Assembly: GCA_964567555.1 (NCBI GenBank)
Contig: CAZMNA010000002.1
Span: 5,795 to 69,794, forward strand
Direction of reading: 5' to 3'
Length of the DNA: 64,000 nt
Source: an uncultured Candidatus Saccharibacteria bacterium
GTDB taxonomy: Bacteria; Patescibacteriota; Saccharimonadia; Saccharimonadales; UBA10212
In this document: in pieces, positions 2,201 to 41,867 of the stretch
How the letters are laid out: every line of letters starts with the position of its first letter
How positions within the stretch are numbered: position 1 is the first letter of the stretch
The notes under the pieces: generated by a model
Seen by the model: only the letters and a program-made list of their open reading frames with translations
Told to the model about the DNA's origin: nothing
Database searches by the model: none
Translations under genes and position numbers: made by a program

Positions 2201-3805
2201 GGTACTGGGGCGTTCACCCTTAACGGCCTTCTCTGTTGGAATCAGCCAGCCGATGTACCAGCCAAGCATCAAGCGTGTCTGTGAATATATTGCGGAAAAT
2301 GCCCCATAAAGAATCGATACAAACGGCAGATATGCCCATTGCAGAAGTATCCAAATAGTACGGTGGCGTCTGTAGTGCTCGGGTTTGGGCGGAAGAGTCT
2401 TAAAGCTTATATAAAGCGACACACTAACACCTAAAACTAGGGCGAATAGTTGAAGACGACTAGCTAGATGCGGCAATTGGTTGGCCAAATAGCTTTGGGG
2501 GTGGAGAAAAAGGAGCGGATAAGCAGCAATCAGGATAATAAGCGGCGCGGTTGACCAGCTAACGTGACTTTCCAGCAATCTAAAGAAGCGAACGATTAAA
2601 AGGCGCTTGGAAATATTATTCTTCTTAATAAAGCTGTTATAACCAACGTAAGCGATGTCTGAAGCACCCCACGCCCAGCGGCGCAGCTGGATAAATTGCA
2701 TCTTTAGGGTTCGCCGGTAGGTATCTGCTAAGACCGCATCTTGATAGATTGGCGTAAAAATCGGGTAAACCTCGTGTTTGCCATCGTAGCGAAAGAATGT
2801 CCGCCAGTACTGATGGCCGTCTTCAACAATAGTTCTAACACTCCAAAAATCAGTGTCTATCAAAGCGGCCATGGGCTGGGAGTGGGCCGAAAAGTTCCTC
2901 AGCATATGCGGACGCAGCGCCAACATGGTGTTCCACATAGAATTACCTGTAGCAATTACCCTCATCGGGGCTGGCGCATCCCAGATATTGTTCAGGTAAA
3001 GTGTCACCGGCTGGTAGGAGGCATAGCGCGGCTCTTCGGTTGAACAATAAGTGTAAGTCAAAGCTGCAAAATAGTTTCTGTCAGGCCTATTGTCTGCGTC
3101 CAGGGTCGTTACCAGCACATGCATTGGATCCAGCTTAACTTTAGCTAAATATTTTTTGAGCTCTCGGGCAGCATAGGTAGCATTACCGCCCTTGCCGATG
3201 ATTTCTCCGGCCATCGGCCAGGGGTGCATTACAGCCATAGCGTGGTAAAAATGTTTGCCGAATTTTTTAATAAGGTAATCTGCTGTGGCTTCGATTTCTG
3301 GGCCGCCGCGTTGCTCGTAGCCAAGCACAAGTATCATTTTTTTACCGTCATAGTTGCTATCAACAATCGACTGGATGGTCGGCACCAAAATATCGCGGGA
3401 CTCATTCCAAAAAAGTACCATAACCACGTGGTAGACTTCGCTTGGTTTGATGCGGCTGGCACCGATATATTTTTCAACTCGTTTTAGATTACGGTAATGC
3501 CAGTTTGGTGCTTTTTTGGTATGGGGCACTAGGTCTTCTAAGTCCTGGTTTAAGCCGGTCCAAGGTGCAGCTTTATGCTCGGCCACCAGGCGGTTGGCCT
3601 GAAGGGCTCTTAGGCTAACGCCAATTCCCCTAAACAGCCAAAAAATCAGGTAGGCCAACACAAAGACAGCCGTTATCTGTGGGCCAATTAAGCCCAAAAT
3701 CAGCGGAGACAATAAGATAAGCCACGTTAAAGCCCCTGGCAAAATTTCAAACGCTCGATAGCGCCAATCGCGCTCATCCGGCTGGGGGATTTCGATTGTT
3801 CTCAT
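2189..3805 (-). CDS. processive family-2 glycosyltransferase (cellulose/chitin/hyaluronan-synthase-like), integral membrane
   Basis: 538 aa with TM segments at both ends, LDADNRPD (DxD-type) motif and QLRRW (QxxRW) motif typical of processive GT2 synthases. Confidence 0.75.
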   Translation of the reverse strand: MRTIEIPQPDERDWRYRAFEILPGALTWLILLSPLILGLIGPQITAVFVLAYLIFWLFRGIGVSLRALQANRLVAEHKAAPWTGLNQDLEDLVPHTKKAPNWHYRNLKRVEKYIGASRIKPSEVYHVVMVLFWNESRDILVPTIQSIVDSNYDGKKMILVLGYEQRGGPEIEATADYLIKKFGKHFYHAMAVMHPWPMAGEIIGKGGNATYAARELKKYLAKVKLDPMHVLVTTLDADNRPDRNYFAALTYTYCSTEEPRYASYQPVTLYLNNIWDAPAPMRVIATGNSMWNTMLALRPHMLRNFSAHSQPMAALIDTDFWSVRTIVEDGHQYWRTFFRYDGKHEVYPIFTPIYQDAVLADTYRRTLKMQFIQLRRWAWGASDIAYVGYNSFIKKNNISKRLLIVRFFRLLESHVSWSTAPLIILIAAYPLLFLHPQSYLANQLPHLASRLQLFALVLGVSVSLYISFKTLPPKPEHYRRHRTIWILLQWAYLPFVSILYGAFSAIYSQTRLMLGWYIGWLIPTEKAVKGERPSTSTL

Positions 3806-4158
3806 AGAAGTGATATAAGAGCGTTAGCCACTATAACGGATAGGATTAGCAATAAATCCGCCGAGGCTAGGATGAAAAGAGACATGGATCGCCGCAGTGC
3901 ATACATTTTGTTGCCCAAAAAAATAGCGGCAGCAGCAGTAATCACCATGAAAATAGCTAATGAATAAAGATCGATTGGCTTGCCGCTTTGATAACTGGAG
4001 CCAGAGATATTGGTCCGCCAAGCGACAACAATCGTGGGGTTTTTAGAGACATCAAAGCGTATTAAAACTGAAAGTACACCAACAGTTACCAGAATAGCCA
4101 TAGCCGTTGCCAGCAACAGTACTACCCGATCATGAAAAAACTTCTTATTTGTCTCCAT
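3802..4158 (-). CDS. small multi-pass membrane protein, co-transcribed with the GT2 synthase
   Basis: 4-nt overlap with the GT2 start; hydrophobic helices. I prefer ATG at 4158 (METNKKFF), which has a TAGAAT box at 4182..4187. The track ORF extends to 4248. Confidence 0.5.
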   Translation of the reverse strand: METNKKFFHDRVVLLLATAMAILVTVGVLSVLIRFDVSKNPTIVVAWRTNISGSSYQSGKPIDLYSLAIFMVITAAAAIFLGNKMYALRRSMSLFILASADLLLILSVIVANALISLL

Positions 4159-4307
4159 AAAGCTACCCCATATTCTAGCACGGTCACCCCATACAAAACT
4201 CAGCAAAGGATGGGTATAAATGGTGCGAGATACGAGAATCAAACTCATGCCTCTTGCTTGGGAAGCAAGCGTACTATCATTATACTAATCTCGCCTATTA
4301 AGCTCTT

Positions 4308-4384
4308 TGGAGCCACCTCGGGGACTCGAACCCCGGACCCCCGCTTTACGAAAGCGGTGCTCTAGCCAGCTGAGCTAAGGTGGC
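4308..4384 (-). tRNA. tRNA-Thr (anticodon CGU)
   Basis: Manual cloverleaf on the minus strand: GCCACCT/TA/GCTC-AGCTGGCTA-GAGC/A/CCGCT-TTCGTAA-AGCGG/GGGTC/CGGGG-TTCGAGT-CCCCG/AGGTGGC/T/CCA. Confidence 0.9.
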
Positions 4385-4436
4385 CTGACACCTGAAAGTA
4401 TAACAAAAACTAGCCTACAGGCTGATCTGGCAGGGC

Positions 4437-4991
4437 TTAGCTGTATCTTTTCCGCGCGATACGCTGCATTCGCTTTAGAACCATTTCATCGTCACCCTCA
4501 GACTCGGGACTGTAACCTACAAACGCCAGCCTAGCTATCAATGAGTAAATCAACTCTAGCCTCATTAAAGCTCTGCGTTCTTGGGGGCTATATTCCGTCT
4601 GGGATGCAAACGGATTGATGCTAAAGTTTCCACCCATAGCCTTATGAAAGATTCTGCTCGCTCTATCCATGTGATAATCGGCTGTAACTAGGTTAGCGGC
4701 ACTAAACTGCTCGGGCAACAAAATGTCTCTTTTTGTATAAATAGCGTTGCCAACGGTTTCACGGGAATGGGGCTCAATAAAGATTGCACCTTCAGGAGGC
4801 CCAAGTGGTTCAAAACCGAGCTCGTCTTTCATCAATTCAGAACTGCTGCCTACCAAAATAAGTGGTGTGCCGGTATCTTGCCAAACGTTTAGGCCCAAGT
4901 CTAGTCTCGCCTGTGTATCATTTGAAAGCCCTCCACGTTCACCGCGCGGACCACTTAAGACTACGGTTCCAGTTTTTGTTTTTTCGGGCAC
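4437..4991 (-). CDS. DUF218 (YdcF/SanA/ElyC-like) protein
   Basis: 184 aa. LILVGSSS...GNAIYTK...LVTADYHMDRASRIF resembles the DUF218 core. GTG start preceded by TATAGT-N6. Confidence 0.6.
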   Translation of the reverse strand: MPEKTKTGTVVLSGPRGERGGLSNDTQARLDLGLNVWQDTGTPLILVGSSSELMKDELGFEPLGPPEGAIFIEPHSRETVGNAIYTKRDILLPEQFSAANLVTADYHMDRASRIFHKAMGGNFSINPFASQTEYSPQERRALMRLELIYSLIARLAFVGYSPESEGDDEMVLKRMQRIARKRYS

Positions 4992-8902: not shown

Positions 8903-8978
8903 GCCCTGGTAGCTCAGTGGATAGAGCGCCGCCGTCCTAAGGCGGGCGTCGCAGGTTCGAATCCTGCCCAGGGTACCA
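8903..8978 (+). tRNA. tRNA-Arg (anticodon CCU)
   Basis: Manual cloverleaf GCCCTGG/TA/GCTC-AGTGGATA-GAGC/G/CCGCC-GTCCTAA-GGCGG/GCGTC/GCAGG-TTCGAAT-CCTGC/CCAGGGT/A/CCA. Confidence 0.9.
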
Positions 8979-9627: not shown

Positions 9628-9907
9628 ATGCCATGAATTTTAACAGATGGAAAAGGCTAATGCTAGTCTGAACAGTTAATTTGTTCTTTTGGCCTCATTA
9701 CTCGATTTTGTTTCAGCCTCAGCTAATTCTTATCGCCTGCAAATTGCATACCGCTCGTTGCTTTACTTTACAAGTACAGTTCCTCACCTGAATTATTTTC
9801 GGCAGATAAAAATTAGTTCCACTTAACAAAACACTATCGACTAATGAGTCCACTGATATTGTGCGACGTAGGTTGTGCTATAATGTTAGTGCTAAGAAAA
9901 GACAAAA

Positions 9908-10822
9908 ATGAAATATGACCAAGCCGTAGCCGAATTTTTGGAGTACATGGAGCTAGAGCAAAACCGCTCTGCTAAGACAATTGAAAATTATAGCCACTAC
10001 CTGACCCGCCTATCCGACTTTGCCGGCGATATAAAGGTGTCTGATATAAATAGTGAGCTCATCCGCAAATGGCGCCTGTGGCTTAACCGGCTTGGCACTA
10101 ATACATCTGATGAATTGTCCAAAACTACCCAGAACTATCATTTAATTGCCGTGCGAAGCTTCTTAAAATTCTGCGCCAAGCGTGAATTTAGTGCCCTGCC
10201 CGCCGATAAAATTGAACTTGCCCGGACAACCCGGCCACAAGTGACTTTTTTGACTCCTGAGGAACTAGAAAGATTAACCAGCCAGACTAAAACCGAAAGT
10301 CTGTCCGGGCTGCGCGACAGAGCGATTATTGAACTGCTGTTTTCTAGCGGGCTTAGGGTCAGTGAATTAGTTGGTCTGGACGGCGACCATATTAATTTAG
10401 CGCGCCGGGAGTTCATGGTCCGCGGTAAAGGCCAAAAGGACCGGCCGATTTTTATAAGTAAAGAAGCAGCGGACTGGATAAGTAAATACCTAGAAAAACG
10501 TGAAGATAACGCCAAACCCATGTTCATCCGCTATAGTGGGCGCAGTAAAGCCGATACCAGCGGCAATTTTCAGCGCCTAACGGCGCGCAGCATCCAAAGA
10601 ATGGTTGCCCGTTATGCCCGTCTAGCCGGCATAACTAAGCACGTTTCTCCGCATACCCTGCGTCATAGTTTTGCTACTGACCTGCTTATGAATGGTGCGG
10701 ATTTACGCTCTGTGCAGGCTATGCTGGGCCACTCAAATATCGCTACTACCCAAATCTATACCCATGTAACCGATCCCCACCTGCGTGAGGTGCACGAAAA
10801 GTTCCATCGGAGCGGCAAATAG
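9908..10822 (+). CDS. tyrosine recombinase XerC/XerD-like
   Basis: C-terminal HTLRHSFATDLLMNGADLRSVQAMLGHSNIATTQIYTHV (R..HxxR..Y catalytic pattern). TGCTATAAT box at about 9872. Confidence 0.85.
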   Translation: MKYDQAVAEFLEYMELEQNRSAKTIENYSHYLTRLSDFAGDIKVSDINSELIRKWRLWLNRLGTNTSDELSKTTQNYHLIAVRSFLKFCAKREFSALPADKIELARTTRPQVTFLTPEELERLTSQTKTESLSGLRDRAIIELLFSSGLRVSELVGLDGDHINLARREFMVRGKGQKDRPIFISKEAADWISKYLEKREDNAKPMFIRYSGRSKADTSGNFQRLTARSIQRMVARYARLAGITKHVSPHTLRHSFATDLLMNGADLRSVQAMLGHSNIATTQIYTHVTDPHLREVHEKFHRSGK

Positions 10823-10914
10823 CTATTGCTTGCTAGGTCTCGCAAACGCGCGTTAAAGTAGGTGCTAAGCGACTCTTTCCGTCCCTAGTACCTCAAAATT
10901 AAGGAGGAGTGGTC

Positions 10915-12003
10915 ATGCGCGCAGGACACGTGCTGGCACTTAGCGCTGCTGTTGGTAGCGCCGCCCTCATAGCTTCGGGGGTAGCGGTAAAGCCGGCTGC
11001 GGCCAGCTGTAAACCCACCAAGGTGGATAGTTACACAATCTATCCGCCGGACCCAAAGATGATCCCGCCGGCTCCGCCGGTGAGAATTGACGTCACCTAC
11101 ACCGTCTTCATCGACGACGACGGTGTGACGTACTTGAACTTTAGCGGTGCAGTCGGCGATCAAGAATACTGGAACCCCAGCAATGGTTCCGGTAAATACA
11201 CCTTTACACGGTGGTTCGACGTCCCCAGCAGTTACCGTGGTCATCCTCAAGAAACGCTGGAGTTCTCCGGCGCCTGCATGAGCGGGTCGCTTCGGTACCG
11301 GGCCCGTATACCGCGGCCCGGTCAGTCCCCCGTAACGGTGACAAAACCGGTGGGCCAGGCTTCCGGCGGTTGTAGCCAAGACGTGGTCCTGGACCTGCAC
11401 GGATCCGGGGCCAAGGCGGGAGAAGATAGCAAGGTCGGCCGGCAGTTTGCGGCCGCCATGCACAGTCTTCACCCACGCCATAGCAATCAACTGGTACCGG
11501 TACCGTTCGCAGCGGCGGGCGGAGCGGCTCTGGTTGGTGCGTTCCTGCACTTACCGGGCCCGTACCACAGGTCCGTGGTCCGCATGAAGGACTGGTTGCG
11601 GAGCAAGCTCCGCAACCTAGCCAAGAAATGCCCGGCGAGCCACGTCTTTTTGGTTGGTCTAAGCCAGGGAGCTCAAGCCGCCGGCGACGTGTTTGCTGAG
11701 CAACCGTGGCCACAAATCAAGGGTGTCGCGTTGTTTGGCGACACCAAGTACAATCACCTGGACACAGTCGATCGGTTTGGGCTGAACGCTAGCCCGAAGT
11801 ACCGAAGGACGTTCAGGGACGGAAGCTTAGGTACTCGCGCCGTCTGGCCAGCCAGCAAGCACTCACGGGTGCTTAGTTTCTGCCACTTTGGCGATCCCGT
11901 GTGTGCCGTTGACGTAATTGCTATGATCTTTGAGCGATTCCGTCAACATGACAACTACGGGCGCTTTGGCGAGCCAAAGAAGGCTGCCCAGCGCTTTGGC
12001 TAG
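10915..12003 (+). CDS. secreted cutinase-like serine esterase (GC-rich, probably foreign)
   Basis: Signal-peptide-like N-terminus, nucleophile elbow GLSQGAQ, C-terminal CHFGDPVC...QHDNY (cutinase Asp/His/disulfide pattern). AAGGAGG lies 7 nt upstream of ATG 10915. Confidence 0.7.
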   Translation: MRAGHVLALSAAVGSAALIASGVAVKPAAASCKPTKVDSYTIYPPDPKMIPPAPPVRIDVTYTVFIDDDGVTYLNFSGAVGDQEYWNPSNGSGKYTFTRWFDVPSSYRGHPQETLEFSGACMSGSLRYRARIPRPGQSPVTVTKPVGQASGGCSQDVVLDLHGSGAKAGEDSKVGRQFAAAMHSLHPRHSNQLVPVPFAAAGGAALVGAFLHLPGPYHRSVVRMKDWLRSKLRNLAKKCPASHVFLVGLSQGAQAAGDVFAEQPWPQIKGVALFGDTKYNHLDTVDRFGLNASPKYRRTFRDGSLGTRAVWPASKHSRVLSFCHFGDPVCAVDVIAMIFERFRQHDNYGRFGEPKKAAQRFG

Positions 12004-12019
12004 AAAGCCTTTTGGGACG

Positions 12020-12047
12020 CGGGCGGGGCGATATTTTGCCCCGCCCG
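12020..12047. terminator. GC-rich hairpin between convergent genes (terminator-like, no clear U-tract)
   Basis: CGGGCGGGGC-gatatttt-GCCCCGCCCG, a 10-bp perfect stem. Confidence 0.4.
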
Positions 12048-12069
12048 GTGACGGAAAGTGTCGCTCACT

Positions 12070-13239
12070 TTAAAAAATTGGGCCAGATATATTGGCAGGA
12101 ACGCTGCAACTGCTATCTGCATTAGGGTCAGGATTGGCGGGGTCATACATATTTGCGCCACTGACAGGTATCCTAAATAATTTGCAAACGGTGTCCATGG
12201 ATTGGCCGGCAAAACTGTCTTGGACTTTTAGGCGCACAACGGCTTCAATCCGCTGCAGCACATCATTAGCTTCCCCGGTTGAATCCACTACCGCTACTAC
12301 GCCCGGGATGGCCACCGGCCCCGAGCCATCAGTTGCTTGGACGCCTATCGTTAGGTCTTGGTAAAAGGCCGTCATTTTGACATAAAAATCCTGAGCGCCG
12401 CCGTTATTTTGGTCCAGATCTTGAACCTCGGCATTACAAAAGCGGGATGGTACCGATGTGAATGGTAAGCCAAGTGAAGTTGGTGTATTGGAACTGTTGC
12501 AAAAACCATCCACAAAGGAGCCGTCGGTTGAAGCCGTTTTGTAACTAACAGCGCAGATGTGGCCGCCACTGCACGAGCGATTATCCGGGTATAAAAAGTA
12601 GTGGCGGGAGAGCGAATTAAGCTGATTGTTAGTTAGGGAGCTGTTGGGAGCTGCATAGATATCTACCTCTAGCAACCCAGTCGAATTTGGGCTAATGCCT
12701 TGTGGCCCTTTGTTCTCCTGAGGCAATTGGTGGGGCGGATAGGCTGTATGCGCCGGATCAGATAACACCTCCTTTGTGGCACCCTGATAGTCCTGGTTTT
12801 CCCAAGAGAAAAACAGTTTAGATAGATTAAATACACCGGTTATTTCAAAAGTTTGGGATTTGCCGGCACTCAATGGAAAGGGTAGTTCCGGCGGCTTTGG
12901 GTTGATAGTCAAACAAGAATATTGCACCAGCCCGTTGCCGTACAGATTGCCGTTGGGAGCAAAGTATGTACCGCTGGGCTTACAATTCTTTATTACGGTT
13001 GTTGGGTTAGCATTTGAATATAAAGTAGCATCGTTTATGCCCGATTCGGCAGCATAGCGGGCTACATCAGACAGCTGGCGATCTAGAGCCTGCTGGGACT
13101 CACGGCCGGCCAAATGGGCAAAGCCCAGCGTAATTAGTGCAAGGATTGTTACGATAACACTGACAACCAAAAAAGAGACTAAACCGGCTTGATTGGAGGA
13201 TTGACGGCTTTTCATGGTGCTTATATTTAATCGTAGCAT
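12070..13239 (-). CDS. pilus-associated protein, PilX-like N-terminus
   Basis: 389 aa. N-terminal hydrophobic segment AGLVSFLVVSVIVTILALITLGF without Glu5. It is the last gene of the pilin gene run. Confidence 0.5.
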   Translation of the reverse strand: MLRLNISTMKSRQSSNQAGLVSFLVVSVIVTILALITLGFAHLAGRESQQALDRQLSDVARYAAESGINDATLYSNANPTTVIKNCKPSGTYFAPNGNLYGNGLVQYSCLTINPKPPELPFPLSAGKSQTFEITGVFNLSKLFFSWENQDYQGATKEVLSDPAHTAYPPHQLPQENKGPQGISPNSTGLLEVDIYAAPNSSLTNNQLNSLSRHYFLYPDNRSCSGGHICAVSYKTASTDGSFVDGFCNSSNTPTSLGLPFTSVPSRFCNAEVQDLDQNNGGAQDFYVKMTAFYQDLTIGVQATDGSGPVAIPGVVAVVDSTGEANDVLQRIEAVVRLKVQDSFAGQSMDTVCKLFRIPVSGANMYDPANPDPNADSSCSVPANISGPIF

Positions 13240-13868
13240 TAATAACTTTCTAAAACTGTTGAACTGTAGTTAGCCGTGGCGCAGTACTGTGAACCGGCCA
13301 GAGCGCCGGTGCACTGGGCATCGGCGGCTTTATAGGCCGGGGTGGAGCCCGATGGGGATTCAAACACAGTGTTGTCTACACCGTAAAACACCAGATTGAT
13401 AGTAACCGTGCAAAGTCCATTCGGACAACTTACGGTAAGGTTGTTGAGCTGCATACTGTTGCCTGCCATTTCTGCACCGCTAGTGTCACCGGCGGGGTCA
13501 GGGCAACTCCCGGAAATATCTGTCCGCTTTAGGCCAAAAGCCGCGCCATAGCCAACATGAGCACCGAGCAGGAATTTATACTCATGATTGCCAATGCAAA
13601 AATACTTGGTTTGGTGGTCGGTGCTAGTAATGACGACTGGCGTAAACGGTTTATTATAGAACTGGATATCGCTGGTTATACTGCTGGTTATGTTGCGCGC
13701 GTCTTCTTGAACTAAGGTCATGTTGACACCTTTAGAAAACACTCGCCCAATCTGCAAAAAAGTGACCAAGCATATCATTAAAAGTATGGTAAACACAGTC
13801 ATGGCAATCATTAGCTCCAAGATTGTGAAGCCTGCTTGATTTTGGTGGTTGTTGGTTGACTGTTTCAT
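13239..13868 (-). CDS. minor type IV pilin (prepilin-type N-terminal cleavage/methylation domain)
   Basis: NQAG/FTILELMIAMTVF class III signal. Confidence 0.75.
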   Translation of the reverse strand: MKQSTNNHQNQAGFTILELMIAMTVFTILLMICLVTFLQIGRVFSKGVNMTLVQEDARNITSSITSDIQFYNKPFTPVVITSTDHQTKYFCIGNHEYKFLLGAHVGYGAAFGLKRTDISGSCPDPAGDTSGAEMAGNSMQLNNLTVSCPNGLCTVTINLVFYGVDNTVFESPSGSTPAYKAADAQCTGALAGSQYCATANYSSTVLESY

Positions 13869-14434
13869 TTGGCGCGGTAATAGACCTGAGCTATGTTGAC
13901 CGGACCGCCACCCAGGTTATTCCACCTGGCACTAACCGCATAGACCGTGGGGTTAGTTCCGCTTGGCCCATTTGGAGTAGTCGTGGCAATGTTGATGAAA
14001 TACTTCTGGTTTGACGGGCTTGAATCGGTTTGGCCGCTGTCGTTTCTGGCACATTCATAATTATAAGGTTTTGATGAATTAGGTGAGCCACCGGATGTAG
14101 CAGCCACCAAGGTATCGAGTGGCGATGCATTGTTATCATAGTGCCCCCAATTACCATTGGCAGGGTCGCTGGCCGATTCATCCAAGCAAAAATTCATATT
14201 TGACGCCGCAAACGTAGAGTCAAAGTTGGCAGGATCCAATTTGTTGCGCAACTTAAGAGCTGCAATCTGGCTTTCTACGATATTTAAGGCCTGATTACGT
14301 TCCCGCGCGCTTATGGCTTCGTTAAGCGCTCGGCTGGCCACCGCATAAGCTGAACCAATGGCAAAGGCGGCGATCGCCAAGGCAATCATAACTTCTATAA
14401 TGGTGTCGCCATGGTTGGGCTTGGGCAGCTTCAT
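13865..14434 (-). CDS. minor type IV pilin-like protein
   Basis: HG/DTIIEVMIALAIAAF (Glu5 present). Confidence 0.65.
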   Translation of the reverse strand: MKLPKPNHGDTIIEVMIALAIAAFAIGSAYAVASRALNEAISARERNQALNIVESQIAALKLRNKLDPANFDSTFAASNMNFCLDESASDPANGNWGHYDNNASPLDTLVAATSGGSPNSSKPYNYECARNDSGQTDSSPSNQKYFINIATTTPNGPSGTNPTVYAVSARWNNLGGGPVNIAQVYYRAK

Positions 14435-15333
14435 GGGCAGCTCACTCTTCCAAACCTTAGGTTTGTTTGAGGCCCAAGCCCACTACCGCTAGTAATGGTC
14501 AGGGTGGCGGTTTCATTGTCATTGTCATTAATAAAGCACAGCTTGTATGTGTCTTGTGCCGGCGGCCAATTGGGCGAAGGCGTGGCGCCCATGGATAAAG
14601 GCTGAGCGCACGTGCCAGTCAGTTCCAGGCAAAGCTGGACTTCGTGGTGACCAGTTATGTTACTAGGCGGAACATTGCTAGTAAGTGGGTAAGCCACTGC
14701 GGTTAAATCATTACTGCCGTTGGCAGCACTGGCGGTCGCTGTGCCTAAACTATTAAAAAACCCTATCAACTGGTCTGCGCCAGTTATTGTACCGGGGTAA
14801 CTTTCTACGGTGCTACTTACAGATTTGAGGTTCAGGCCGCCGCCTAAAAGATATGTCTCGGTGAAATCCAGACCAGAATTATCATAGCCAGTGGCAGCTA
14901 TCGGCATGGCTTGCCCCATGTTGCTTACTAATTCACCATTGGGTTGGGCACGGCGCCCAAAAATCGAGTAAGCAATAATCTTACCCGACTGTCCCGAAAC
15001 GCAGCCGCTGCAACTGCCGGTAGTGGTGAATTGGAGCGCCTTGCCCAAAAAAATACATTCCGGTTGGACAGAACCACTGCCAGTACTCAGCTTCGGCCGA
15101 TTGACTGGCGTAGTACAGCTGTAATTTGTGGCACTGCCGCTGCCCGGGAAGCCGTCGCTCACATCGTTCATCCAGCTCTGAACCTTGGAATTAACATCTC
15201 TCATACTTTGGGAGAATTGGGTCTCGGCATTTTTGCCGCCGACAGCCACCAGCGCTCCGGCGAGCAGTGCCGCGGAGATAGCCAAAAAAAGCATTACTTC
15301 CAAAATGGTGTACCCGCCTAACACCTGTCGCAT
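14431..15333 (-). CDS. minor type IV pilin-like protein
   Basis: LGG/YTILEVMLFLAISAALL. GCTTATGCTATACT box ends 7 nt upstream of the ATG. Confidence 0.65.
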   Translation of the reverse strand: MRQVLGGYTILEVMLFLAISAALLAGALVAVGGKNAETQFSQSMRDVNSKVQSWMNDVSDGFPGSGSATNYSCTTPVNRPKLSTGSGSVQPECIFLGKALQFTTTGSCSGCVSGQSGKIIAYSIFGRRAQPNGELVSNMGQAMPIAATGYDNSGLDFTETYLLGGGLNLKSVSSTVESYPGTITGADQLIGFFNSLGTATASAANGSNDLTAVAYPLTSNVPPSNITGHHEVQLCLELTGTCAQPLSMGATPSPNWPPAQDTYKLCFINDNDNETATLTITSGSGLGPQTNLRFGRVSCP

Positions 15334-27457: not shown

Positions 27458-27925
27458 CTAACCGTTGTAGATCCGCTGCGTCCAGATTTTGACCAAAGCC
27501 CGGTAGCCCGGCGAGCTGAAGATGAACTTTTGCTTCACTGGGTGATGGTTTGGCAGGCCGGCGGCATAGGTAAAGGCCACTCTCACATTGACAATGGCGC
27601 ACGAACAGACCTTCTTGAACTTGCAGACGAAGCCGCCGTGAGTCGCGGCGCAGTGCCGGTTGCTGGCCTTGACGGCCGTGACGCCCGCCGGCTTGACGTA
27701 GCGGAGCGTTACTGGCATGGTCTTGCCGACAGCGAAGCCGACGCTGTACTTGTCCGTTTCTCCGGCTGAGGGGTTGTAGTTCGGATCCAATCCGAAGCCG
27801 TCCACCGGAACCTTTCTGGCCAATCCTAGCGCCTCGGCCGAGGCACTGGCGCCAGTGAAGACAGTGCCAAACGTAAGCACCAGCGGCACGATGGCCGCCA
27901 GGAAAAGTTTGTAATGTCTACTCAT
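27458..27925 (-). CDS. GC-rich small secreted Cys-containing protein (155 aa), unknown function
   Basis: Signal peptide ...FTGASASAEA. GGAAGGGG SD upstream. Hairpin CGCACCGC-taacta-GCGGTGCG lies just after the stop. Confidence 0.55.
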   Translation of the reverse strand: MSRHYKLFLAAIVPLVLTFGTVFTGASASAEALGLARKVPVDGFGLDPNYNPSAGETDKYSVGFAVGKTMPVTLRYVKPAGVTAVKASNRHCAATHGGFVCKFKKVCSCAIVNVRVAFTYAAGLPNHHPVKQKFIFSSPGYRALVKIWTQRIYNG

Positions 27926-37348: not shown

Positions 37349-39643
37349 TCAAGTCTCGTCCGGCATGTCGTCGTAGACGTCGCCGTCTGGGTTGGCTGGC
37401 GCGGCGGTAACTTCTGCCGGTTCGGCCTCTGTTTCTGGCCCGGCCGGCGGCTCTGGTGCCGCGTCCATCGCACCAAAAACGTCATCCGCACTGGACACTA
37501 AAACCTCACGCGGGCGGTTGGTGCCATCAGAACCGGCAATAATGCCCCGCTCTTCCATAATATCCATCAGGCGTGAGGCCCGGCCGTAGCCAATCCTAAG
37601 CTTGCGTTGAAGTAAGCTTGTGCTGGCTTTGCCGGCGGCTGTCACAACCTCCACAGAATCGCGCAGGGCGGCATCGTCTTCACCGCTATCGCTAGACATC
37701 ATGGTACCTTTACCACCGATGGTAACCGGCTGGGAAATAACTTCATCGTCATACTGCGGGCCGCGCTGTTTACGTAGAAAATCACAGACTTTGGTTGTCT
37801 CGCTATCGCTAATTAATGAGCCCTGGACACGCTTAGGCTTCATGTATTCGGGAATACTAAATAATAGGTCGCCACGGCCCAGCAGTTTCTCTGCGCCGGC
37901 CTGGTCAATGATAGTCCGGCTGTCCACCTGGCTAACCACAGTAAAGGCAATCCGCGCCGGGATGTTAGCCTTAATTAGCCCGGTTATAACGTCCACGCTA
38001 GGCCGCTGTGTAGCAATGATTAAATGGATACCAGCGGCACGGGCTTTTTGAGCCAACCTTACGATGAGCGATTCTACATCGCGTGCGGCCATCATCATAA
38101 GATCCGCCAGCTCATCAATCACAATTACAATGTAGGGCATGCCTTCTTCTTGCTTGACTTCGTTATATTCGGCGATGTTGCGCTTGCCTTCAGCGGCAAA
38201 CGCCTTAAGGCGGCGTTCCATCTCTGCCACGGCCCATTTGAGGGCGGAGATACACTTTTCCGGCTCGTGAACCACCGGTGCAAGCAGGTGCGGGATGTCT
38301 TTGTAAAGATTCATCTCAACTTGTTTGGGGTCCACCAAAATTAATTTGAGGTCGGATGGCCCGTTTCTATAAAGCAGGCTGGTCAAAATCGTGTTGATGG
38401 CAACGGATTTACCAGAGCCGGTCTGGCCAGCTATAAGCAGGTGCGGCATTTTTTCTAGGTCACCCAGCACCGGCAAGCCAGAAATATCTTTACCAATGGA
38501 GATTTCCAGCGGGCTTTTGGCTTCCCCCCACTCGGGGCTGGCCAGTAGCGAATGAATCGTAACGGTCGCGGCTTTGACGTTGGGCACTTCAATTCCCACC
38601 GCCCTTTTGCCCGGAATTGGGGCTTCCATGCGGATAGAACTGGCGGCTAAATCAAGTGCCAGGTTATTTTCCAGTGCTGTTAAGCGACTGAGTTTTACGC
38701 CGTGCGGCGGCTTGAGTGTGTATTGGGTTACACGCGGCCCGACGTTGGCGCCCTCAACATCTACATCAATATTAAAGTTGGCAAAAGTATCTTTAATAAT
38801 CTCGGCGTTTTGTTTAACATCACCGGCATCAGCCTTGTCTTGATTGGCATTAAGTAAATCCAAAGACGGGAATTTCCAGTCGGGGTCAGAGGCCGTCACT
38901 AGCGCGGCGTGGTCCTGCTCTGGAGCCAGTTTTTGGGCAGTGTTACGTAGTGACGACATGCGAGCGGTCGCCGGCATCCCCTGATGATGTTCCACTGGTA
39001 CACCCTCATGCAGCTGGAAGTCCGGGTTCATTTTGGCCTTTAAGGCCGCCAGGTCTTCTTCACTTTTTTCTTTGGGCTCGCGTTTAAACAGTTGGGATAA
39101 TTTAGCCAGGCTTTTGGGGTCAATTGAAAAGGTAAACATTATGGCAAACACACCCAGTAGGAAAAATACCAGCGAGGATAAAAAGTTGCCCAAAGCGTGA
39201 GCTAGACCGTTGCCAAAAAACTTGCCAATCGCTCCGCCGTGACCGCCGACTTGCTGGGCGGAGTTTAGGGCGCCATGCAAAAAGGCTGTATGCAACCAGC
39301 CAGCCCAAAAGACTAATAATCCCAGTACCCCAGCCATCTTAGGCAGCGGCACGCGGCGATCTTCGTTTATGAATTTGAGTGAGCCGAGGTAGATTAGGGC
39401 GAACGGCACGATAATGGTTACTGTGCCAAGCGCCCACCAGACGCCGTGCCAAAAATCGTGTGGAATCGGCGCGTGGGAGAATGAGCCAAAGGCTAGCACC
39501 AGCCCAGCTAGAATAAAGCCGATCGCCCAGACGCTGCGCCAAAAAGCCGTTAAATCGCGCTTATCGGCTAAAGCCTTTTTGCGCGATTTTTTTAAAGCCG
39601 TAGTTTTAGAACTTTTTCTTTTCTTTGGCATGCTTACATTCAT
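37349..39643 (-). CDS. ftsK: DNA translocase FtsK/SpoIIIE
   Basis: N-terminal TM block, motor domain with GQTGSGKS and the C-terminal gamma (winged-helix) region LLQRKLRIGYGRASRLMD. Confidence 0.9.
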   Translation of the reverse strand: MNVSMPKKRKSSKTTALKKSRKKALADKRDLTAFWRSVWAIGFILAGLVLAFGSFSHAPIPHDFWHGVWWALGTVTIIVPFALIYLGSLKFINEDRRVPLPKMAGVLGLLVFWAGWLHTAFLHGALNSAQQVGGHGGAIGKFFGNGLAHALGNFLSSLVFFLLGVFAIMFTFSIDPKSLAKLSQLFKREPKEKSEEDLAALKAKMNPDFQLHEGVPVEHHQGMPATARMSSLRNTAQKLAPEQDHAALVTASDPDWKFPSLDLLNANQDKADAGDVKQNAEIIKDTFANFNIDVDVEGANVGPRVTQYTLKPPHGVKLSRLTALENNLALDLAASSIRMEAPIPGKRAVGIEVPNVKAATVTIHSLLASPEWGEAKSPLEISIGKDISGLPVLGDLEKMPHLLIAGQTGSGKSVAINTILTSLLYRNGPSDLKLILVDPKQVEMNLYKDIPHLLAPVVHEPEKCISALKWAVAEMERRLKAFAAEGKRNIAEYNEVKQEEGMPYIVIVIDELADLMMMAARDVESLIVRLAQKARAAGIHLIIATQRPSVDVITGLIKANIPARIAFTVVSQVDSRTIIDQAGAEKLLGRGDLLFSIPEYMKPKRVQGSLISDSETTKVCDFLRKQRGPQYDDEVISQPVTIGGKGTMMSSDSGEDDAALRDSVEVVTAAGKASTSLLQRKLRIGYGRASRLMDIMEERGIIAGSDGTNRPREVLVSSADDVFGAMDAAPEPPAGPETEAEPAEVTAAPANPDGDVYDDMPDET

Positions 39644-39839: not shown

Positions 39840-41867
39840 CTAGTCAACGCGGGCGTCTTGGTTGAGCAACTGTTGCCGCATCTGGGCAAAGCGTCTTTGC
39901 TGGTCGGCCGCTACTTCTTCAGATGATTTTTGCATGGCCTCGGCGTGACCGTGCAGGCCGTTATTGGTCTTTTCATTGCGACTGCCAATGACGTTCACTA
40001 CCGGTATAACAATCGGTGAACGGGCCGTTTGCTCGTACAAAAAGTGAGTGACATAATCTTTAAGCTCGGCCTTGAAGCGGTCCAAATCCACGCGCTTAAA
40101 GCGCTGTGTCACTGCCCTTCTAAGCTCCTCACGGAATTCGGTCATCAGTTCCTCGTTGTCCTTCATATATATGAAGCCGCGGCTGATGATATCCGGGCTG
40201 GTCAAAAGTGCACCGTTCTTTTTGTCTATAGTCAGAACAACCGCTACTAAGCCTTCTTCGGCCAGTAGCACGCGGTCTTTGACTACCACGTTTGAGACAA
40301 TCGCGCCGGTTTGGTCCACCAAAATTGTGCCATGCGGCACTTCCCCGTCCAGCTCCATCTTATCTTTAGTAAGTTCAACTACCTGGCCGTTTTCTACGTT
40401 GTCCAAATTTGTCCGCGGGATGCCGGCCTCTATGGCTAGGTCAATATGGTATTTCTTGGCCGTGTAGTCGCCGTAAATCGGCAAAAAGAACTTGGGGTGG
40501 ATGAGCTCAATCATTTCGCGGTATTCGTCTTGGGAGGCGTGGCCGGAAACGTGTAGCGGGCCGCCGTGGTCCACTTCGTACGTCTCGTGACGATGGACAT
40601 GCATACCTTTTCTGAACAAATCGTCCACCATAGCCCGAATTAAGGCGTCGTTGCCCGAATATGGGATTGGCGTAGACGAAAGTATGACCGTGTCTTGCTC
40701 TTTGAGCGTTATGTATTTGTGATCGCCTAGGCTCATGCGCTGCAGAGCGGAGTTAGGTTCGCCCTGAGAGCCGGTACAAACCACCACAACTTCCTCGTCC
40801 TTGAGCTTAGGTACGCTGGAAATCGGCACAAAGGTGCCCTTGGGGATCTTCATGAAGCCGTTTGTGACGGCCATCTCAAGGGTAGAGATCATGCTGCGGC
40901 CATCCATGGCAACCTTGCGGTTGTGTCTGACAGCGGCGTTTACAATCATTTGTACGCGGTTCATGTTGGTAGAAAACACGCCGACAAAAATTCGGCCGGG
41001 GGCTGACTCCATGATATCCACGTAGCTTTGTTCAATGGTGGATTCACTAGGTGTACGGCCAGGACGCTCGGTCGTCGTGGATTCGCTCATTAGCAGTAGC
41101 ACGCCTTCATCAGCTAATTGTTTTAGTCTGTCTGAGTCAGTGCGCTCGTGGTCCAGTGGATTGGGGTCCAAGCGGAAATCTCCGGTGTTAATGACGCGCC
41201 CAACCGGCGTATCTACAACCACCATGGTACTGCCCGGAATAGAGTGCGTTACCCTAACCAGCTCCACAAAAAATTGGCCGATTTTAAGCCGTTCGTGAGT
41301 ATCCTCGTTCATGACTTTGGTGCTTAGCTTAAAACCTTCCGGCAGAGGCAAGCCAAAGTTTTCAAATATTTCTTCTACCCGGCCGATGGTAAAGCGGCTG
41401 CCGTAAACCGGCACGTTGTACTTAGGCAAAATGTGCGGCAAACCGCCCATGTGGTCCAAGTGGCCGTGGGTAATCACAAAAGCTTTGATTTTGTTCTTAA
41501 TTTGGTCCAAATAGGTGGTGTCAGCGATGCCGTAGTTGATGCCAGGCAAATCAACACCAAGGTCATTGCCGCAGTCAATTACAATCGCGTCGTTTTGGTA
41601 CTCAAGCACCATCATATTTTTAGAGCCGCCGCCGTCCATACCTCCTAAGCCGACAATTCTAAGGCGCGGGCTGTCATCAATTAAGTTAGCGCGGCGTGGT
41701 TTTACGACCTGTGCAGCTGAAGCGTCACGGTACTGGTTGGCGATGCGGTTAGCATCGGCTACTGTGCGTTTTTGGGCACGCAAAGCCGCCCCGCGGCTGA
41801 CTTTAGCGGTCCGGTTAGACCCGTCTTGCGGGGCTTTTGGTCTGGAATTTTTTGGTTTGTTATCCAT
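39840..41867 (-). CDS. rnj: ribonuclease J (beta-CASP metallo-beta-lactamase) with basic N-terminal extension
   Basis: HGHLDHMGG motif; beta-CASP and C-terminal domain lengths fit RNase J. Confidence 0.85.
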   Translation of the reverse strand: MDNKPKNSRPKAPQDGSNRTAKVSRGAALRAQKRTVADANRIANQYRDASAAQVVKPRRANLIDDSPRLRIVGLGGMDGGGSKNMMVLEYQNDAIVIDCGNDLGVDLPGINYGIADTTYLDQIKNKIKAFVITHGHLDHMGGLPHILPKYNVPVYGSRFTIGRVEEIFENFGLPLPEGFKLSTKVMNEDTHERLKIGQFFVELVRVTHSIPGSTMVVVDTPVGRVINTGDFRLDPNPLDHERTDSDRLKQLADEGVLLLMSESTTTERPGRTPSESTIEQSYVDIMESAPGRIFVGVFSTNMNRVQMIVNAAVRHNRKVAMDGRSMISTLEMAVTNGFMKIPKGTFVPISSVPKLKDEEVVVVCTGSQGEPNSALQRMSLGDHKYITLKEQDTVILSSTPIPYSGNDALIRAMVDDLFRKGMHVHRHETYEVDHGGPLHVSGHASQDEYREMIELIHPKFFLPIYGDYTAKKYHIDLAIEAGIPRTNLDNVENGQVVELTKDKMELDGEVPHGTILVDQTGAIVSNVVVKDRVLLAEEGLVAVVLTIDKKNGALLTSPDIISRGFIYMKDNEELMTEFREELRRAVTQRFKRVDLDRFKAELKDYVTHFLYEQTARSPIVIPVVNVIGSRNEKTNNGLHGHAEAMQKSSEEVAADQQRRFAQMRQQLLNQDARVD

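Follow-up and report, generated by a model that had tools for sequence, protein, structure and literature searches.

A GC-rich cutinase-like esterase gene in Saccharibacteria: an apparently old, vertically inherited locus with a putative stabilised-mRNA architecture

A 64,000-nucleotide stretch of an uncultured Candidatus Saccharibacteria genome (contig CAZMNA010000002.1; hereafter the window) contains a sharply GC-rich gene for a predicted secreted cutinase-like esterase, directly downstream of a Xer-type recombinase gene. The best explanation of the locus as a whole, to which we give a probability of about 70%, is that the gene is old, vertically inherited and maintained as a self-contained, conserved expression unit that would yield a stabilised mRNA. 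New here are a GC3 excess retained by eight of nine lineages, an open reading frame predicted to fold far more stably than its protein and codon usage require, and a covarying stem that would join the predicted 5' end of the mRNA to its 3' UTR. A sharp GC island beside a recombinase gene in a reduced epibiont genome resembles host-derived DNA, and the first-pass annotation had proposed horizontal acquisition; the evidence below points to an old vertical locus instead. The gene, its neighbour and the parts of its product are as follows.

9908..10822, plus strand: Xer-type tyrosine recombinase gene, 304 aa (Pfam Phage_integrase and SAM-like N-domain), the conserved upstream neighbour
10915..12003, plus strand: coding sequence of the secreted cutinase/CE5-family esterase, 362 aa plus stop (open reading frame, Pfam Cutinase, homologues and structure model)
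10915..11007, plus strand: predicted Sec signal peptide, aa 1-31, cleavage after AAA (inspection of the translation; helix 4-20 in the model)
11008..11364, plus strand: N-terminal domain, aa 32-150 (beta strands, pLDDT 40-60)
11365..12000, plus strand: cutinase/CE5 catalytic domain, aa 151-362 (pLDDT 93-98, Foldseek, conserved triad)
11662-11664, plus strand: Ser250 codon, catalytic domain
11893-11895, plus strand: Asp327 codon, catalytic domain
11947-11949, plus strand: His345 codon, catalytic domain
residues 153/239 and 323/330, plus strand: the conserved, putatively disulfide-forming cysteine pairs of the esterase
10885-11550 and 11204-11713, minus strand: two antisense open reading frames, judged spurious (no credible family match; overlap with a sense frame that carries conserved catalytic residues)

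The open reading frame as called by the finder begins with a GTG at 10909, which lies too close to the Shine-Dalgarno (SD) sequence, so the start is placed at the ATG at 10915. A signal peptide had been proposed, and inspection of the translation agrees, giving an n-region MRAGH, a hydrophobic core and an AAA/S cleavage site, together with the modelled N-terminal helix. The domain that follows (aa 32-150) has zero Pfam matches, and BLAST pairs it with none of the N-extensions found in clade members; those extensions are themselves weakly related. The remainder of the protein matches Pfam PF01083 (Cutinase) with 47.7 bits against a gathering score of 25.9 (aa 161-336), is modelled at a pLDDT of 93-98, and finds exclusively cutinases, cutinase-like enzymes or CE5 acetyl-xylan esterases among its best 50 Foldseek matches in the PDB, including 7cc4, 1bs9, 1qoz and the Fusarium cutinase (target-normalised TM 0.60-0.74). 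The GLSQGAQ, CHFGDPVC and QHDNY motifs reported earlier are all present in the translation. Ser250, Asp327 and His345 are invariant in 65 aligned relatives and likewise in a set of 13; across the 65 sequences, Cys323 and Cys330 are invariant, and Cys153, Cys239, Ser164 (in HGSG) and Gln251 are at least 90% conserved. In the alignment the triad and the cysteines correspond to the catalytic region and the KCP and FC..GD..C motifs of solved cutinases. Ser164 and Gln251 are candidate oxyanion-hole residues (a Ser/Thr after the first strand and the Gln after the nucleophile); in the Fusarium enzyme these are Ser42 and Gln121. NCBI labels on clade members read 'carbohydrate esterase family 5 protein [Candidatus Saccharibacteria bacterium]' and 'cutinase family protein'. 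The earlier identification as a secreted cutinase-like serine esterase therefore stands on the Pfam score, the model, the structural matches, the invariant triad and the cysteine pairs. Judged by the model and these conserved residues, the gene product is a secreted two-domain protein, of which the C-terminal 210 aa form a confidently predicted cutinase/CE5-fold, functional-looking serine esterase.

Within the cutinase/CE5 superfamily (fungal cutinases, cutinase-like enzymes and acetyl-xylan esterases; 7cc4, 1bs9, 1qoz, 1cus) the fold is common to both, and the G-x-S-Q-G nucleophile elbow, the Asp in the C-x-x-G-D-x-x-C loop, the His and both cysteine pairs are equivalent, but sequence identity to the solved enzymes is only 16-24%. 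The window esterase has G-L-S-Q-G rather than G-Y-S-Q-G at the nucleophile, spaces its Asp and His 18 residues apart, which is longer than the spacing of 13 in Fusarium solani cutinase (Asp175/His188), adds a 120-aa N-terminal domain, and falls in a separate bacterial subfamily, which numbers about 1650 representatives when clustered at 50%. The same superfamily contains Culp6/Rv3802c, MSMEG_6394 and the lysin B proteins of mycobacteriophages and Gordonia phages. Actinobacterial Culp-type proteins and lysin B act on the envelope lipids of mycolic-acid bacteria. Rv3802c and MSMEG_6394 are among the structural matches of the window esterase; lysin B of Gordonia phage Linetti matches weakly in sequence (31% over 131 aa, E 1e-3), and so does phrog_102, a lysis-category family annotated 'endolysin' (E 1.4e-6), and the Culp6 equivalog model scores 16.1 bits against a cut-off of 570 bits. 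Similarity to Culp6 and lysin B, which are mycolyl-arabinogalactan esterases, is thus confined to the superfamily level and does not reach the family level. Most likely the enzyme would hydrolyse an ester-linked component of a host or environmental envelope, either a lipid ester or an acetylated polysaccharide; a host-envelope substrate in particular is speculative, since the similarity to lysin B and the mycobacterial Culp proteins is marginal.

The composition of the gene is as unusual as first described. The three 60-nt samples counted earlier are reproduced at 61.7% and 66.7% GC in the esterase gene and 41.7% in the recombinase gene. Over its whole length the esterase open reading frame has 59.9% GC against 48.5% in the remaining window, the maximum among all 1089-nt windows (z about 4; the next best reaches 55.7%), with GC1/GC2/GC3 of 0.62/0.50/0.67, a GC3 that ranks second among 59 window genes (z 2.7), and the largest tetranucleotide distance in the window (z about 4). 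The gene is therefore compositionally foreign by GC, GC3 and tetranucleotide usage. The long antisense frames noted alongside this claim do exist at the coordinates listed above, and long open antisense frames are expected in GC-rich coding sequence.

Two explanations would take this deviation as the mark of foreign DNA. The first, which we consider very improbable, is a recent horizontal acquisition from a high-GC actinobacterial host, with the high GC, the strong SD sequence and the downstream hairpin as donor features that have yet to ameliorate. It would account for the esterase gene being the strongest compositional outlier of the window, for a wider family that resides on high-GC contigs with two Actinomycetota names among its members, and for the weak matches to Rhodococcus plasmid cutinases and Gordonia phage lysin B. 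The second, of negligible probability, is an assembly chimera in which a GC-rich fragment of another organism was joined into a Saccharibacteria contig, as the abrupt GC shift at both boundaries of the gene might suggest.

Comparison with related genomes contradicts both. First, the gene order rotamase, bPH, NDK, Xer, esterase is common to the window and eight other lineages (L003, L005, L006, L007, L009, L022, L025 and L032), whose Xer proteins are 83-87% identical to the window copy and are encoded directly upstream of the esterase gene. Second, the closest homologues of the esterase are these syntenic genes rather than high-GC sequences: they have 42-48% identity, lie directly downstream of a Xer-type gene in at least nine Saccharibacteria-type lineages, and form a core clade with 89% bootstrap. 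The overall GC of the syntenic genomes is 47-51%, the same as that of the window genome, which is the kind of closest relative that the first-pass annotation had named as evidence against its own proposal. Third, Mantel tests link the divergence of the esterase to that of Xer, NDK and rotamase (r 0.50-0.61, p 0.004-0.011), and the identity matrices are congruent with those of the flanking genes, including for the close pair L025/L032. Fourth, the 5' and 3' non-coding architecture described below is conserved across lineages. Fifth, no direct repeats were found flanking the esterase gene, and the locus holds no mobility gene besides the conserved Xer-type gene and no phage-type integrase; the nearest tRNA (8903-8975) lies about 1.9 kb upstream of the left boundary of the gene, with two genes between. 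The junctions themselves recur in many independent assemblies from different samples, and one separately assembled contig (L004) is 100% identical to the window over 1450 nt across the left, recombinase/esterase junction. Where that contig diverges, at window position 11687, a structural variant was considered and rejected, the last 35 nt being Illumina adapter. Synteny in at least nine lineages, with divergence that tracks the flanking housekeeping genes, excludes mis-assembly and recent acquisition from a host, and the proposal of a recent, host-derived gene in this genome does not survive.

The part of the earlier proposal that survives concerns the wider family, which is centred on high-GC organisms, as had been anticipated. 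Its other members lie on contigs of 60-72% GC, with gene GC equal to contig GC, and three members carry organism names: one of Saccharibacteria, in the mid-GC clade, and one each of Gaiellaceae and Solirubrobacterales, in the high-GC branch. The latter are the only two named members of that branch, and both are Thermoleophilia (Actinomycetota). Cluster look-ups of 30 proteins gave a name for two clusters, Gaiellaceae and 'Binatia', of which the latter is probably a mis-binned contig; the Saccharibacteria and Solirubrobacterales names were obtained by a single-sequence search. Judged by the comparisons above, the esterase gene is an old resident, vertically inherited downstream of Xer since before the at least nine lineages diverged. 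Because its clade is nested in a family otherwise found in organisms of 60-72% GC, the likeliest origin, which stays plausible, is a single ancient transfer between phyla that brought the gene into the ancestor.

A different history, in which the slot between Xer and the pilin-like gene cluster is a hot spot repeatedly refilled with GC-rich esterase genes that come from high-GC donors or circulate in a mobile pool of GC-rich genes, would keep GC high without selection. Such recurrent xenologous replacement is unlikely in our estimate, yet several features of the slot are in keeping with it. Its content varies: the esterase gene stands alone in the window and in L003, whereas in L005, L006 and L007 it is accompanied by a PsbP-like gene and a second GC-rich gene for a 332-aa secreted protein. 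The relatives show two domain architectures, with either an N-terminal or a C-terminal extension. In the trees, all of which are distance trees, monophyly of all syntenic esterase genes has 6-15% bootstrap, and in the neighbour-joining tree the L009 gene falls beside a high-GC branch. However, the well-supported core clade and the congruence of the identity matrices with the flanks count against replacement, and the lineages have in common a promoter box, the positions of the arms and the core of the hairpin, which imported genes would not bring. The homologues from high-GC genomes also lack both the bracketing stem and the excess structure of the open reading frame.

The compositional excess itself is conserved. 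In eight of nine lineages, whose esterase proteins are only 30-50% identical, esterase GC3 is 0.58-0.74 against a GC of 0.47-0.51 in the rest of the contig; Xer GC3 is 0.47-0.53 in four of the five lineages computed and 0.61 in L007. Pooled third-position frequencies, given for the esterase first, are 0.165 versus 0.274 for T and 0.316 versus 0.214 for G. Since the excess is conserved across lineages, it cannot be the signature of a donor that has yet to ameliorate. The locus thus shares with horizontally acquired genomic islands a deviant GC, GC3 and tetranucleotide usage, sharp boundaries and an adjoining tyrosine recombinase gene, but differs from them in occupying the same place across deep divergence, in having neither direct repeats nor a phage-type integrase, and in a deviation that is conserved rather than decaying.

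The esterase open reading frame is predicted to be exceptionally structured. Its minimum free energy is -503.8 kcal/mol, while 60 synonymous permutations give -441.2 +/- 10.6 kcal/mol (z -5.9); fourteen other window genes used as a control average z -0.84 with a minimum of -2.4. All ten GC-rich orthologues have negative z values, with a mean of about -3.2, and seven homologues from high-GC genomes average about -0.7. The L003 orthologue has lost the leader, the arm, the SD sequence, the GC excess and the excess structure all together, and serves as a natural built-in control. No such excess is seen in the other GC3-rich secreted-protein gene of the window (27458-27925; z +0.6), and structure therefore fails to account for all GC-rich genes.

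These folds also bear on the idea that the GC3 excess is the translational codon bias of a very highly expressed gene, with RNA structure as a by-product, which seems to us quite improbable. The esterase gene does strongly prefer C-ending codons in two-fold families (TAC 0.92, GAC 0.75, ATC 0.56), its synonymous log-likelihood under genome usage is not among the lowest, and its SD sequence is the strongest in the window. Against this, it is chiefly codons ending in G that gain and codons ending in T that lose, and the favourite four-fold codons of the genome, GCC and GGC, are used less in the esterase gene. The synonymous permutations, moreover, keep codon usage fixed, and an excess of 62 kcal/mol in structure remains.

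The reading of the locus as a conserved expression unit draws on the sequences that surround this structured frame, listed here in their order along the DNA.

10854..10859, plus strand: TAAAGT, putative -10 box of the esterase gene's own promoter (a weak match that aligns with the conserved box of relatives)
10868..10883, plus strand: pyrimidine-rich 5' arm (AGCGACTCTTTCCGTC) of the inverted repeat that brackets the gene, at the predicted mRNA 5' end
10901..10907, plus strand: Shine-Dalgarno sequence AAGGAGG, 7 nt before the ATG at 10915
12020..12047, strand unspecified: GC-rich hairpin after the stop codon (12-bp stem with 10 G-C pairs, 4-nt loop, no T-run)
12050..12065, plus strand: purine-rich 3' arm (GACGGAAAGTGTCGCT) of the bracketing inverted repeat, followed by CACTTT

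The SD sequence singled out by the first-pass annotation forms the strongest anti-SD duplex among 59 genes (-11.9 kcal/mol); only 6 of the 59 reach -8, and the immediate neighbours of the esterase gene range from -0.4 to -3.2. These neighbours had been called leaderless, which is partly right: they lack an SD sequence, but a perfect extended -10 box (TGCTATAAT, 9876-9884) precedes the recombinase gene and ends 23 nt ahead of the ATG, so that a short leader without an SD sequence is implied, not the absence of a leader. For the esterase gene, 10 of 11 lineages have an extended -10-like box (consensus TGTTATAAAA) that precedes the 5' arm by 7-8 nt. The window's own box was not called by the sigma-70 scan, and its alignment with that of the relatives suggests that TAAAGT at 10854..10859 acts as the -10 element of a dedicated promoter. 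Downstream of the stop codon, the hairpin reported earlier is real, with 12020-12031 pairing with 12036-12047 through ten G-C pairs plus one G-U and one A-U (z -4.35 versus shuffles), and its GGG...CCC core does not vary among 11 lineages. A reading of the hairpin as a canonical intrinsic terminator was rejected, since neither strand has a T-run and the terminator scan was negative. A local riboswitch or attenuator in the 5' leader was also rejected, the leader folding no better than shuffles (z -0.16), and Rfam models found only four tRNAs over the window.

The two arms are complementary at 15 of 16 positions, their motif occurs at these two places only within the 64 kb, and the bracketing score of the esterase gene is the highest among 58 genes. 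In a fold of 10867-12072 the arms pair with probabilities of about 1.0, although folds of 1.2-kb RNAs are thermodynamic predictions that are unreliable in detail; the same full-transcript fold pairs the SD sequence and the ATG, which fits poorly with high expression. The stem recurs among relatives. Of 11 mid-GC loci, 8 show it at p <= 0.01; of 10 high-GC loci, none does. Across lineages it comprises 13-16 bp with duplex energies of -25 to -32.5 kcal/mol; it is weak in L007 and not significant in L009. The arm sequences differ among lineages yet match within each locus, with a mean score of 12.0 for arms of the same locus versus 7.6 across loci and a partner-swap permutation p of 5e-5. The 3' arm of relatives lies 43-62 nt after the stop codon, always just beyond the hairpin, and in L006, L007 and L009 it is upstream of a canonical hairpin and T-run terminator. 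Together with the conserved -10-like box, these terminators suggest that both arms may lie on one transcript. By manual reading, the wobble pairs of the arms amount to four G-U on the sense strand versus two on the antisense strand, with no clear strand preference. For the 332-aa gene in the relatives' slot a closing stem was not detected, under a 100-nt-flank protocol that is noisy.

An inverted repeat that flanks exactly one gene, beside a tyrosine recombinase gene whose product is weakly similar to DNA invertase and integron integrase models, could also act at the level of DNA, either as recombination sites for gene inversion and phase variation or as the terminal repeats of a small mobile cassette. 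Several observations render this highly unlikely. The esterase and Xer genes have the same relative orientation in every syntenic locus. The arms vary among lineages while the recombinase stays 83-94% identical, unlike conserved protein-recognition sites. They lack the palindromic layout of core sites, and their motif recurs nowhere else in the window. The recombinase, for its part, matches the housekeeping XerC, XerD and XerA models over its full length and is syntenic with NDK. Two specific forms of such a system were rejected: an integron cassette, because the repeats flank a 1.1-kb open reading frame where an attC would span 60-140 bp, core-site direct repeats are absent and the recombinase belongs to the Xer type; and dif half-sites in the arms, because a partner half-site is missing and the arms vary in sequence.

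Under the preferred reading, an old resident gene expressed as a stabilised mRNA, the high GC and GC3, the strong SD sequence in a mostly SD-less genome and the GC hairpin would all be conserved parts of one self-contained expression unit. Its own -10 box would start the transcript at the pyrimidine-rich 5' arm. The open reading frame that follows would carry far more internal pairing than its protein sequence and codon usage require, and after the GC hairpin the purine-rich 3' arm would pair with the 5' arm and close the whole mRNA. A transcript built in this way may plausibly be protected against 5' and 3' exonucleases; the genes for RNase J and PNPase are both present in the window. Selection for pairing, rather than donor ancestry, may then keep the synonymous sites GC-rich.

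A partial precedent is the hbs mRNA of B. subtilis, in which a strong SD sequence occurs together with a 14-bp pairing that links 5' UTR and 3' UTR and controls the access of RNase J1 and RNase Y (Braun, Durand and Condon 2017, PMC5737220). The likeness lies in a strong SD sequence combined with long-range pairing of leader and 3' UTR (here a predicted 13-16 bp) on a monocistronic message, in an organism that encodes RNase J and PNPase. The esterase locus, known from sequence predictions, differs in that its 5' arm is located at the predicted first nucleotides of the transcript and in that the frame between the arms is itself hyper-structured and GC-rich.

A broader and more tentative idea, which we regard as possible but on balance doubtful, is that a small class of secreted-protein genes, comprising the esterase gene and the gene for the 332-aa protein of its relatives, is kept GC-rich by selection for an 'armoured' mRNA: a hyper-structured open reading frame and, for the esterase, a duplex of 5' end and 3' UTR would make the message long-lived in a cell that has RNase J and PNPase. 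In that case, a GC anomaly that persists in a single gene can signal selection on RNA structure rather than horizontal transfer, and the esterase would be a conserved, heavily invested tool of the epibiont, used for example in host-envelope ester hydrolysis or lipid scavenging. The persistence of the GC3 excess through deep divergence, about 60 kcal/mol of extra stability in the open reading frame and a covarying stem turn mRNA-structure selection as a force on gene composition into a testable hypothesis.

For genomes of the candidate phyla radiation more generally, this locus indicates that composition alone would over-call transfer. In the library of papers that was searched, none deals with a cutinase/CE5 esterase in Saccharibacteria. 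The present comparison points to a secreted enzyme of this kind fixed at one locus in many soil Saccharibacteria-type lineages, and thereby provides a concrete candidate for interaction with the host surface or for the scavenging of lipids and acetyl esters.

The esterase gene, encoding a secreted protein of 362 aa, is the GC maximum among all gene-length windows (z about 4; the second-best reaches 55.7%), with 59.9% GC versus 48.5% in the rest of the window. Every codon position is raised (GC1/GC2/GC3 0.62/0.50/0.67), its GC3 ranks second among 59 window genes, and in tetranucleotide distance it tops the window. The three 60-nt GC samples of the first-pass annotation were reproduced exactly (61.7%, 66.7% and 41.7%), and the strong SD, the GC-rich terminal hairpin and the long antisense ORFs that it described are all present; no credible family match was found for either of the two antisense ORFs. 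The features of the locus are as follows.

10909/10915-12003, + strand, esterase ORF (ORF finding)
10901-10907, + strand, SD AAGGAGG, 7 nt upstream of ATG 10915
12020-12047, 3' of the esterase stop, GC hairpin of ten G-C pairs (z -4.35)
10868-10883 and 12050-12065, flanking the esterase gene, 16-nt bracketing inverted repeat, 15/16 complementary

The 7-nt spacing from the SD identifies ATG 10915, not GTG 10909, as the start. The anti-SD duplex is the strongest among the 59 genes (-11.9 kcal/mol); only six of them reach -8 kcal/mol, and the immediate neighbours are essentially without an SD. The hairpin has no T-run, and a terminator scan called no terminator there.

Several lines of evidence support the earlier call of a cutinase-like esterase. 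The Pfam Cutinase match (47.7 bits) clears the 25.9-bit cut-off, inspection shows an evident signal peptide, and an AlphaFold2 model computed from 65 relatives has pLDDT 93–98 over residues 151–362 and 40–60 over residues 30–150. Foldseek comparison of the model with the PDB returned cutinase-like enzymes, CE5 acetyl-xylan esterases, Fusarium cutinase and mycobacterial Rv3802c, and the target-normalised TM scores reach 0.74. The predicted catalytic Ser250 (in G-L-S-Q-G), Asp327 and His345 are invariant among aligned relatives, as are Cys323 and Cys330, with Cys153 and Cys239 nearly so; all fall at canonical positions in alignment to solved cutinases. The N-terminal domain has no family match and no BLAST partner, clade members included. 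Mycobacterial Culp6 and phage lysin B are only marginally similar, so a host-envelope ester is offered as a hypothetical substrate, not as a finding. The protein is thus a new member of a known family, whose relatives carry automatic cutinase or CE5 annotations; a literature search found no paper discussing such an esterase in Saccharibacteria.

A word-indexed search of 5.8 billion proteins retrieved only three relatives; a profile search run exhaustively against 1.84 billion cluster representatives retrieved 1657, 109 of them with E < 1e-30. Their genomic contexts split into two classes. On mid-GC contigs (47–51% GC), the esterase gene lies directly 3' of a Xer-type tyrosine recombinase gene whose product is 83–87% identical to that encoded at 9908-10822 (+) in the window, preceded, where the contig reaches, by NDK, a bPH-domain gene and a SurA-like rotamase. 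This Xer-esterase order occurs in nine distinct lineages: the window and the contigs L003, L005, L006, L007, L009, L022, L025 and L032. L006 was deposited as an uncultured Candidatus Saccharibacteria MAG, and NCBI lists a further member of the clade as 'carbohydrate esterase family 5 protein [Candidatus Saccharibacteria bacterium]'. On high-GC contigs (60–72% GC), the GC of the homologue equals that of its surroundings; the two named members, Gaiellaceae and Solirubrobacterales, are both Actinomycetota.

Some deposited records in this set need caution. The L005 contig (DATKKU010000035.1) belongs to a Candidatus Binatia MAG. Given its synteny with the window and a Xer of 83% identity, it has probably been mis-binned and comes from Saccharibacteria, which makes the NCBI organism name of HVO86628.1 doubtful. 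The public ENA contig k141_492688 (L004) ends at 1451-1485 in an Illumina TruSeq adapter (AGATCGGAAGAGCACACGTCTGAACTCCAGTCAC), which gives predicted protein P0001 a false C-terminus.

The first-pass annotation had flagged the gene as a candidate horizontal acquisition, perhaps from an actinobacterial host. A recent acquisition of this kind is refuted by the closest relatives, which are syntenic and lie in mid-GC, Saccharibacteria-type lineages. Chimeric assembly is also excluded, as the junction recurs in the syntenic lineages and in a separately assembled contig that is 100% identical across it and whose divergent tail is sequencing adapter. In a neighbour-joining tree of the catalytic domain, nearly all mid-GC sequences cluster in a single region inside the high-GC radiation. 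Bootstrap support is 89% for the core clade (window, L003, L001, L005, L006 and L007) and 58% for the pairing of window with L003; monophyly of all syntenic esterase genes receives only 6–15%. By these comparisons, the gene appears to be an old, vertically inherited resident of the Xer locus. Its likeliest origin would be a single ancient transfer into the ancestor, with a high-GC and probably actinobacterial lineage as donor, though the tree backbone behind this is weakly supported. That backbone, the variable content of the slot between Xer and the downstream pilin-like cluster, and the two domain architectures among the esterases would also suit recurrent replacement at an insertion hot spot. 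This alternative is disfavoured by a non-coding architecture common to the lineages and by the congruence of esterase divergence with that of flanking genes: domain identity tracks Xer, NDK and rotamase identity (Mantel r 0.50–0.61, p 0.004–0.011).

The flanks show divergence of their own. NDK proteins of L009 (longer, at 181 aa), L025 and L032 are only 43–57% identical to those of the other six syntenic lineages, which share 64–75% among themselves; the syntenic set thus contains two deep groups, partly mirrored by the esterase tree. Across the esterase gene, the four genes of the pilin-like cluster (12070-15333, -; weak PilX_N match, N_methyl in relatives) diverge much faster than the housekeeping genes, being only 39–49% identical to their L003 copies and 26–32% to those of more distant syntenic lineages.

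The unusual composition is itself conserved. Syntenic esterase genes have GC 0.55–0.60 and GC3 0.58–0.74 in eight of nine lineages, versus 0.47–0.51 GC for the remaining contig in all nine; Xer GC3, computed for five GC-rich lineages, is 0.47–0.53 in four and 0.61 in L007. The excess is kept though the esterases share only 30–50% identity, a divergence at which synonymous sites should long ago have turned over, so we read it as an equilibrium feature of the gene rather than a donor leftover. Pooled over five lineages, third-position T is 0.165 vs 0.274 and G 0.316 vs 0.214, a consistent shift, and GCC and GGC, the four-fold codons that the genome favours most, occur less often rather than more. 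Two other window genes rank high in GC3. The gene at 27458-27925 (-), for a 155-aa protein that carries a clear signal peptide but matches no Pfam family, has the top value (0.77; GC 0.59) and an SD-like site of -8.0 kcal/mol; unlike the esterase gene, it has no excess mRNA structure (z +0.6). A heliorhodopsin gene at 56793-57554 (+; Pfam E 2e-91) is third (0.65).

The inverted repeat is the strongest bracketing repeat among 58 window genes, and its motif is found nowhere else within the 64-kb window. Of 11 mid-GC loci, 8 carry an equivalent repeat that is significant on its own, against none of 10 high-GC loci. Arm sequences vary by lineage yet match within each locus (mean score 12.0 vs 7.6 cross-locus), forming duplexes of -25 to -32.5 kcal/mol (partner-swap permutation p = 5e-5). 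Repeats beside a recombinase might act on DNA, in inversion or as a cassette; this is disfavoured, because the gene's orientation is identical in all syntenic loci, the arms vary beside a conserved recombinase, and that recombinase is of the XerC/XerD/XerA type. The flanking signals suggest that both arms are transcribed. An extended -10-like box (consensus TGTTATAAAA) common to the 5' flanks lies 7–8 nt upstream of the 5' arm, which should therefore mark the start of the transcript; the window's own box (TAAAGT) is weak. In the 3' flanks, the stop is followed in the same order by a GC hairpin (invariant GGG...CCC core), the 3' arm and a T-run, and L006, L007 and L009 have a second hairpin with T-run beyond the 3' arm, which should therefore lie within the transcript. 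For the Xer gene, the extended -10 box at 9876-9884 is perfect (TGCTATAAT) and is followed by GTTAGTGCTAAG; the esterase box (10854-10870 region) is followed by AGGTGCTAAG. The presence of GTGCTAAG after both boxes suggests a common promoter/start-site architecture, with a short SD-less leader for Xer.

The esterase ORF is itself predicted to carry much more structure than its protein sequence and codon usage demand. Its MFE is -503.8 kcal/mol, versus -441.2 +/- 10.6 for 60 synonymous permutations (z -5.9); 14 other window genes average -0.84 (minimum -2.4). All ten GC-rich orthologues, window included, are negative (mean about -3.2), and seven homologues from high-GC genomes average about -0.7. 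Expression-linked codon bias cannot explain this excess, which persists in permutations with codon usage fixed. In the predicted fold of 10867-12072, the two arms close the molecule with pair probabilities of about 1.0 and the SD is occluded. The L003 orthologue (3722-4852), whose -10-like box abuts the ATG and which is thus leaderless, is a natural control, lacking the 5' arm, SD, GC excess (0.486; GC3 0.478) and excess structure all together. In three relatives, the slot from the esterase gene to the pilin-like cluster holds two extra genes (L005 6961-8867, L006 7088-8872, L007 9190-10920): one for a PsbP_2-like exported protein of 218–231 aa (GC 0.39–0.43), and one for a secreted protein of 325–332 aa (GC 0.59–0.62, GC3 0.74–0.82) for which no family match was found. 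The latter is hyper-structured in two of the three lineages (z -5.5 in L006, -4.2 in L007); its low-GC neighbour shows no such excess.

Selection for a stable, closed and highly paired mRNA may maintain the GC-richness of the gene, although the weak -10 box of the window, the SD occlusion in the predicted fold and the lack of excess structure in the GC3-rich gene at 27458-27925 weigh against it. The nearest published precedent for the predicted layout is the Bacillus subtilis hbs mRNA, in which a strong SD and a 14-bp interaction between 5'- and 3'-UTRs govern whether RNase J1 and RNase Y gain access (PMC5737220). Genes for RNase J and PNPase lie in the window too; together with that for FtsK, they bear on mRNA decay and Xer function in this organism:

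37349-39643, - strand, FtsK with gamma domain
39840-41867, - strand, RNase J
42665-44845, - strand, PNPase

The unexpected part is a GC anomaly conserved together with a predicted hyper-structured, end-paired mRNA, and this combination merits an experimental look.
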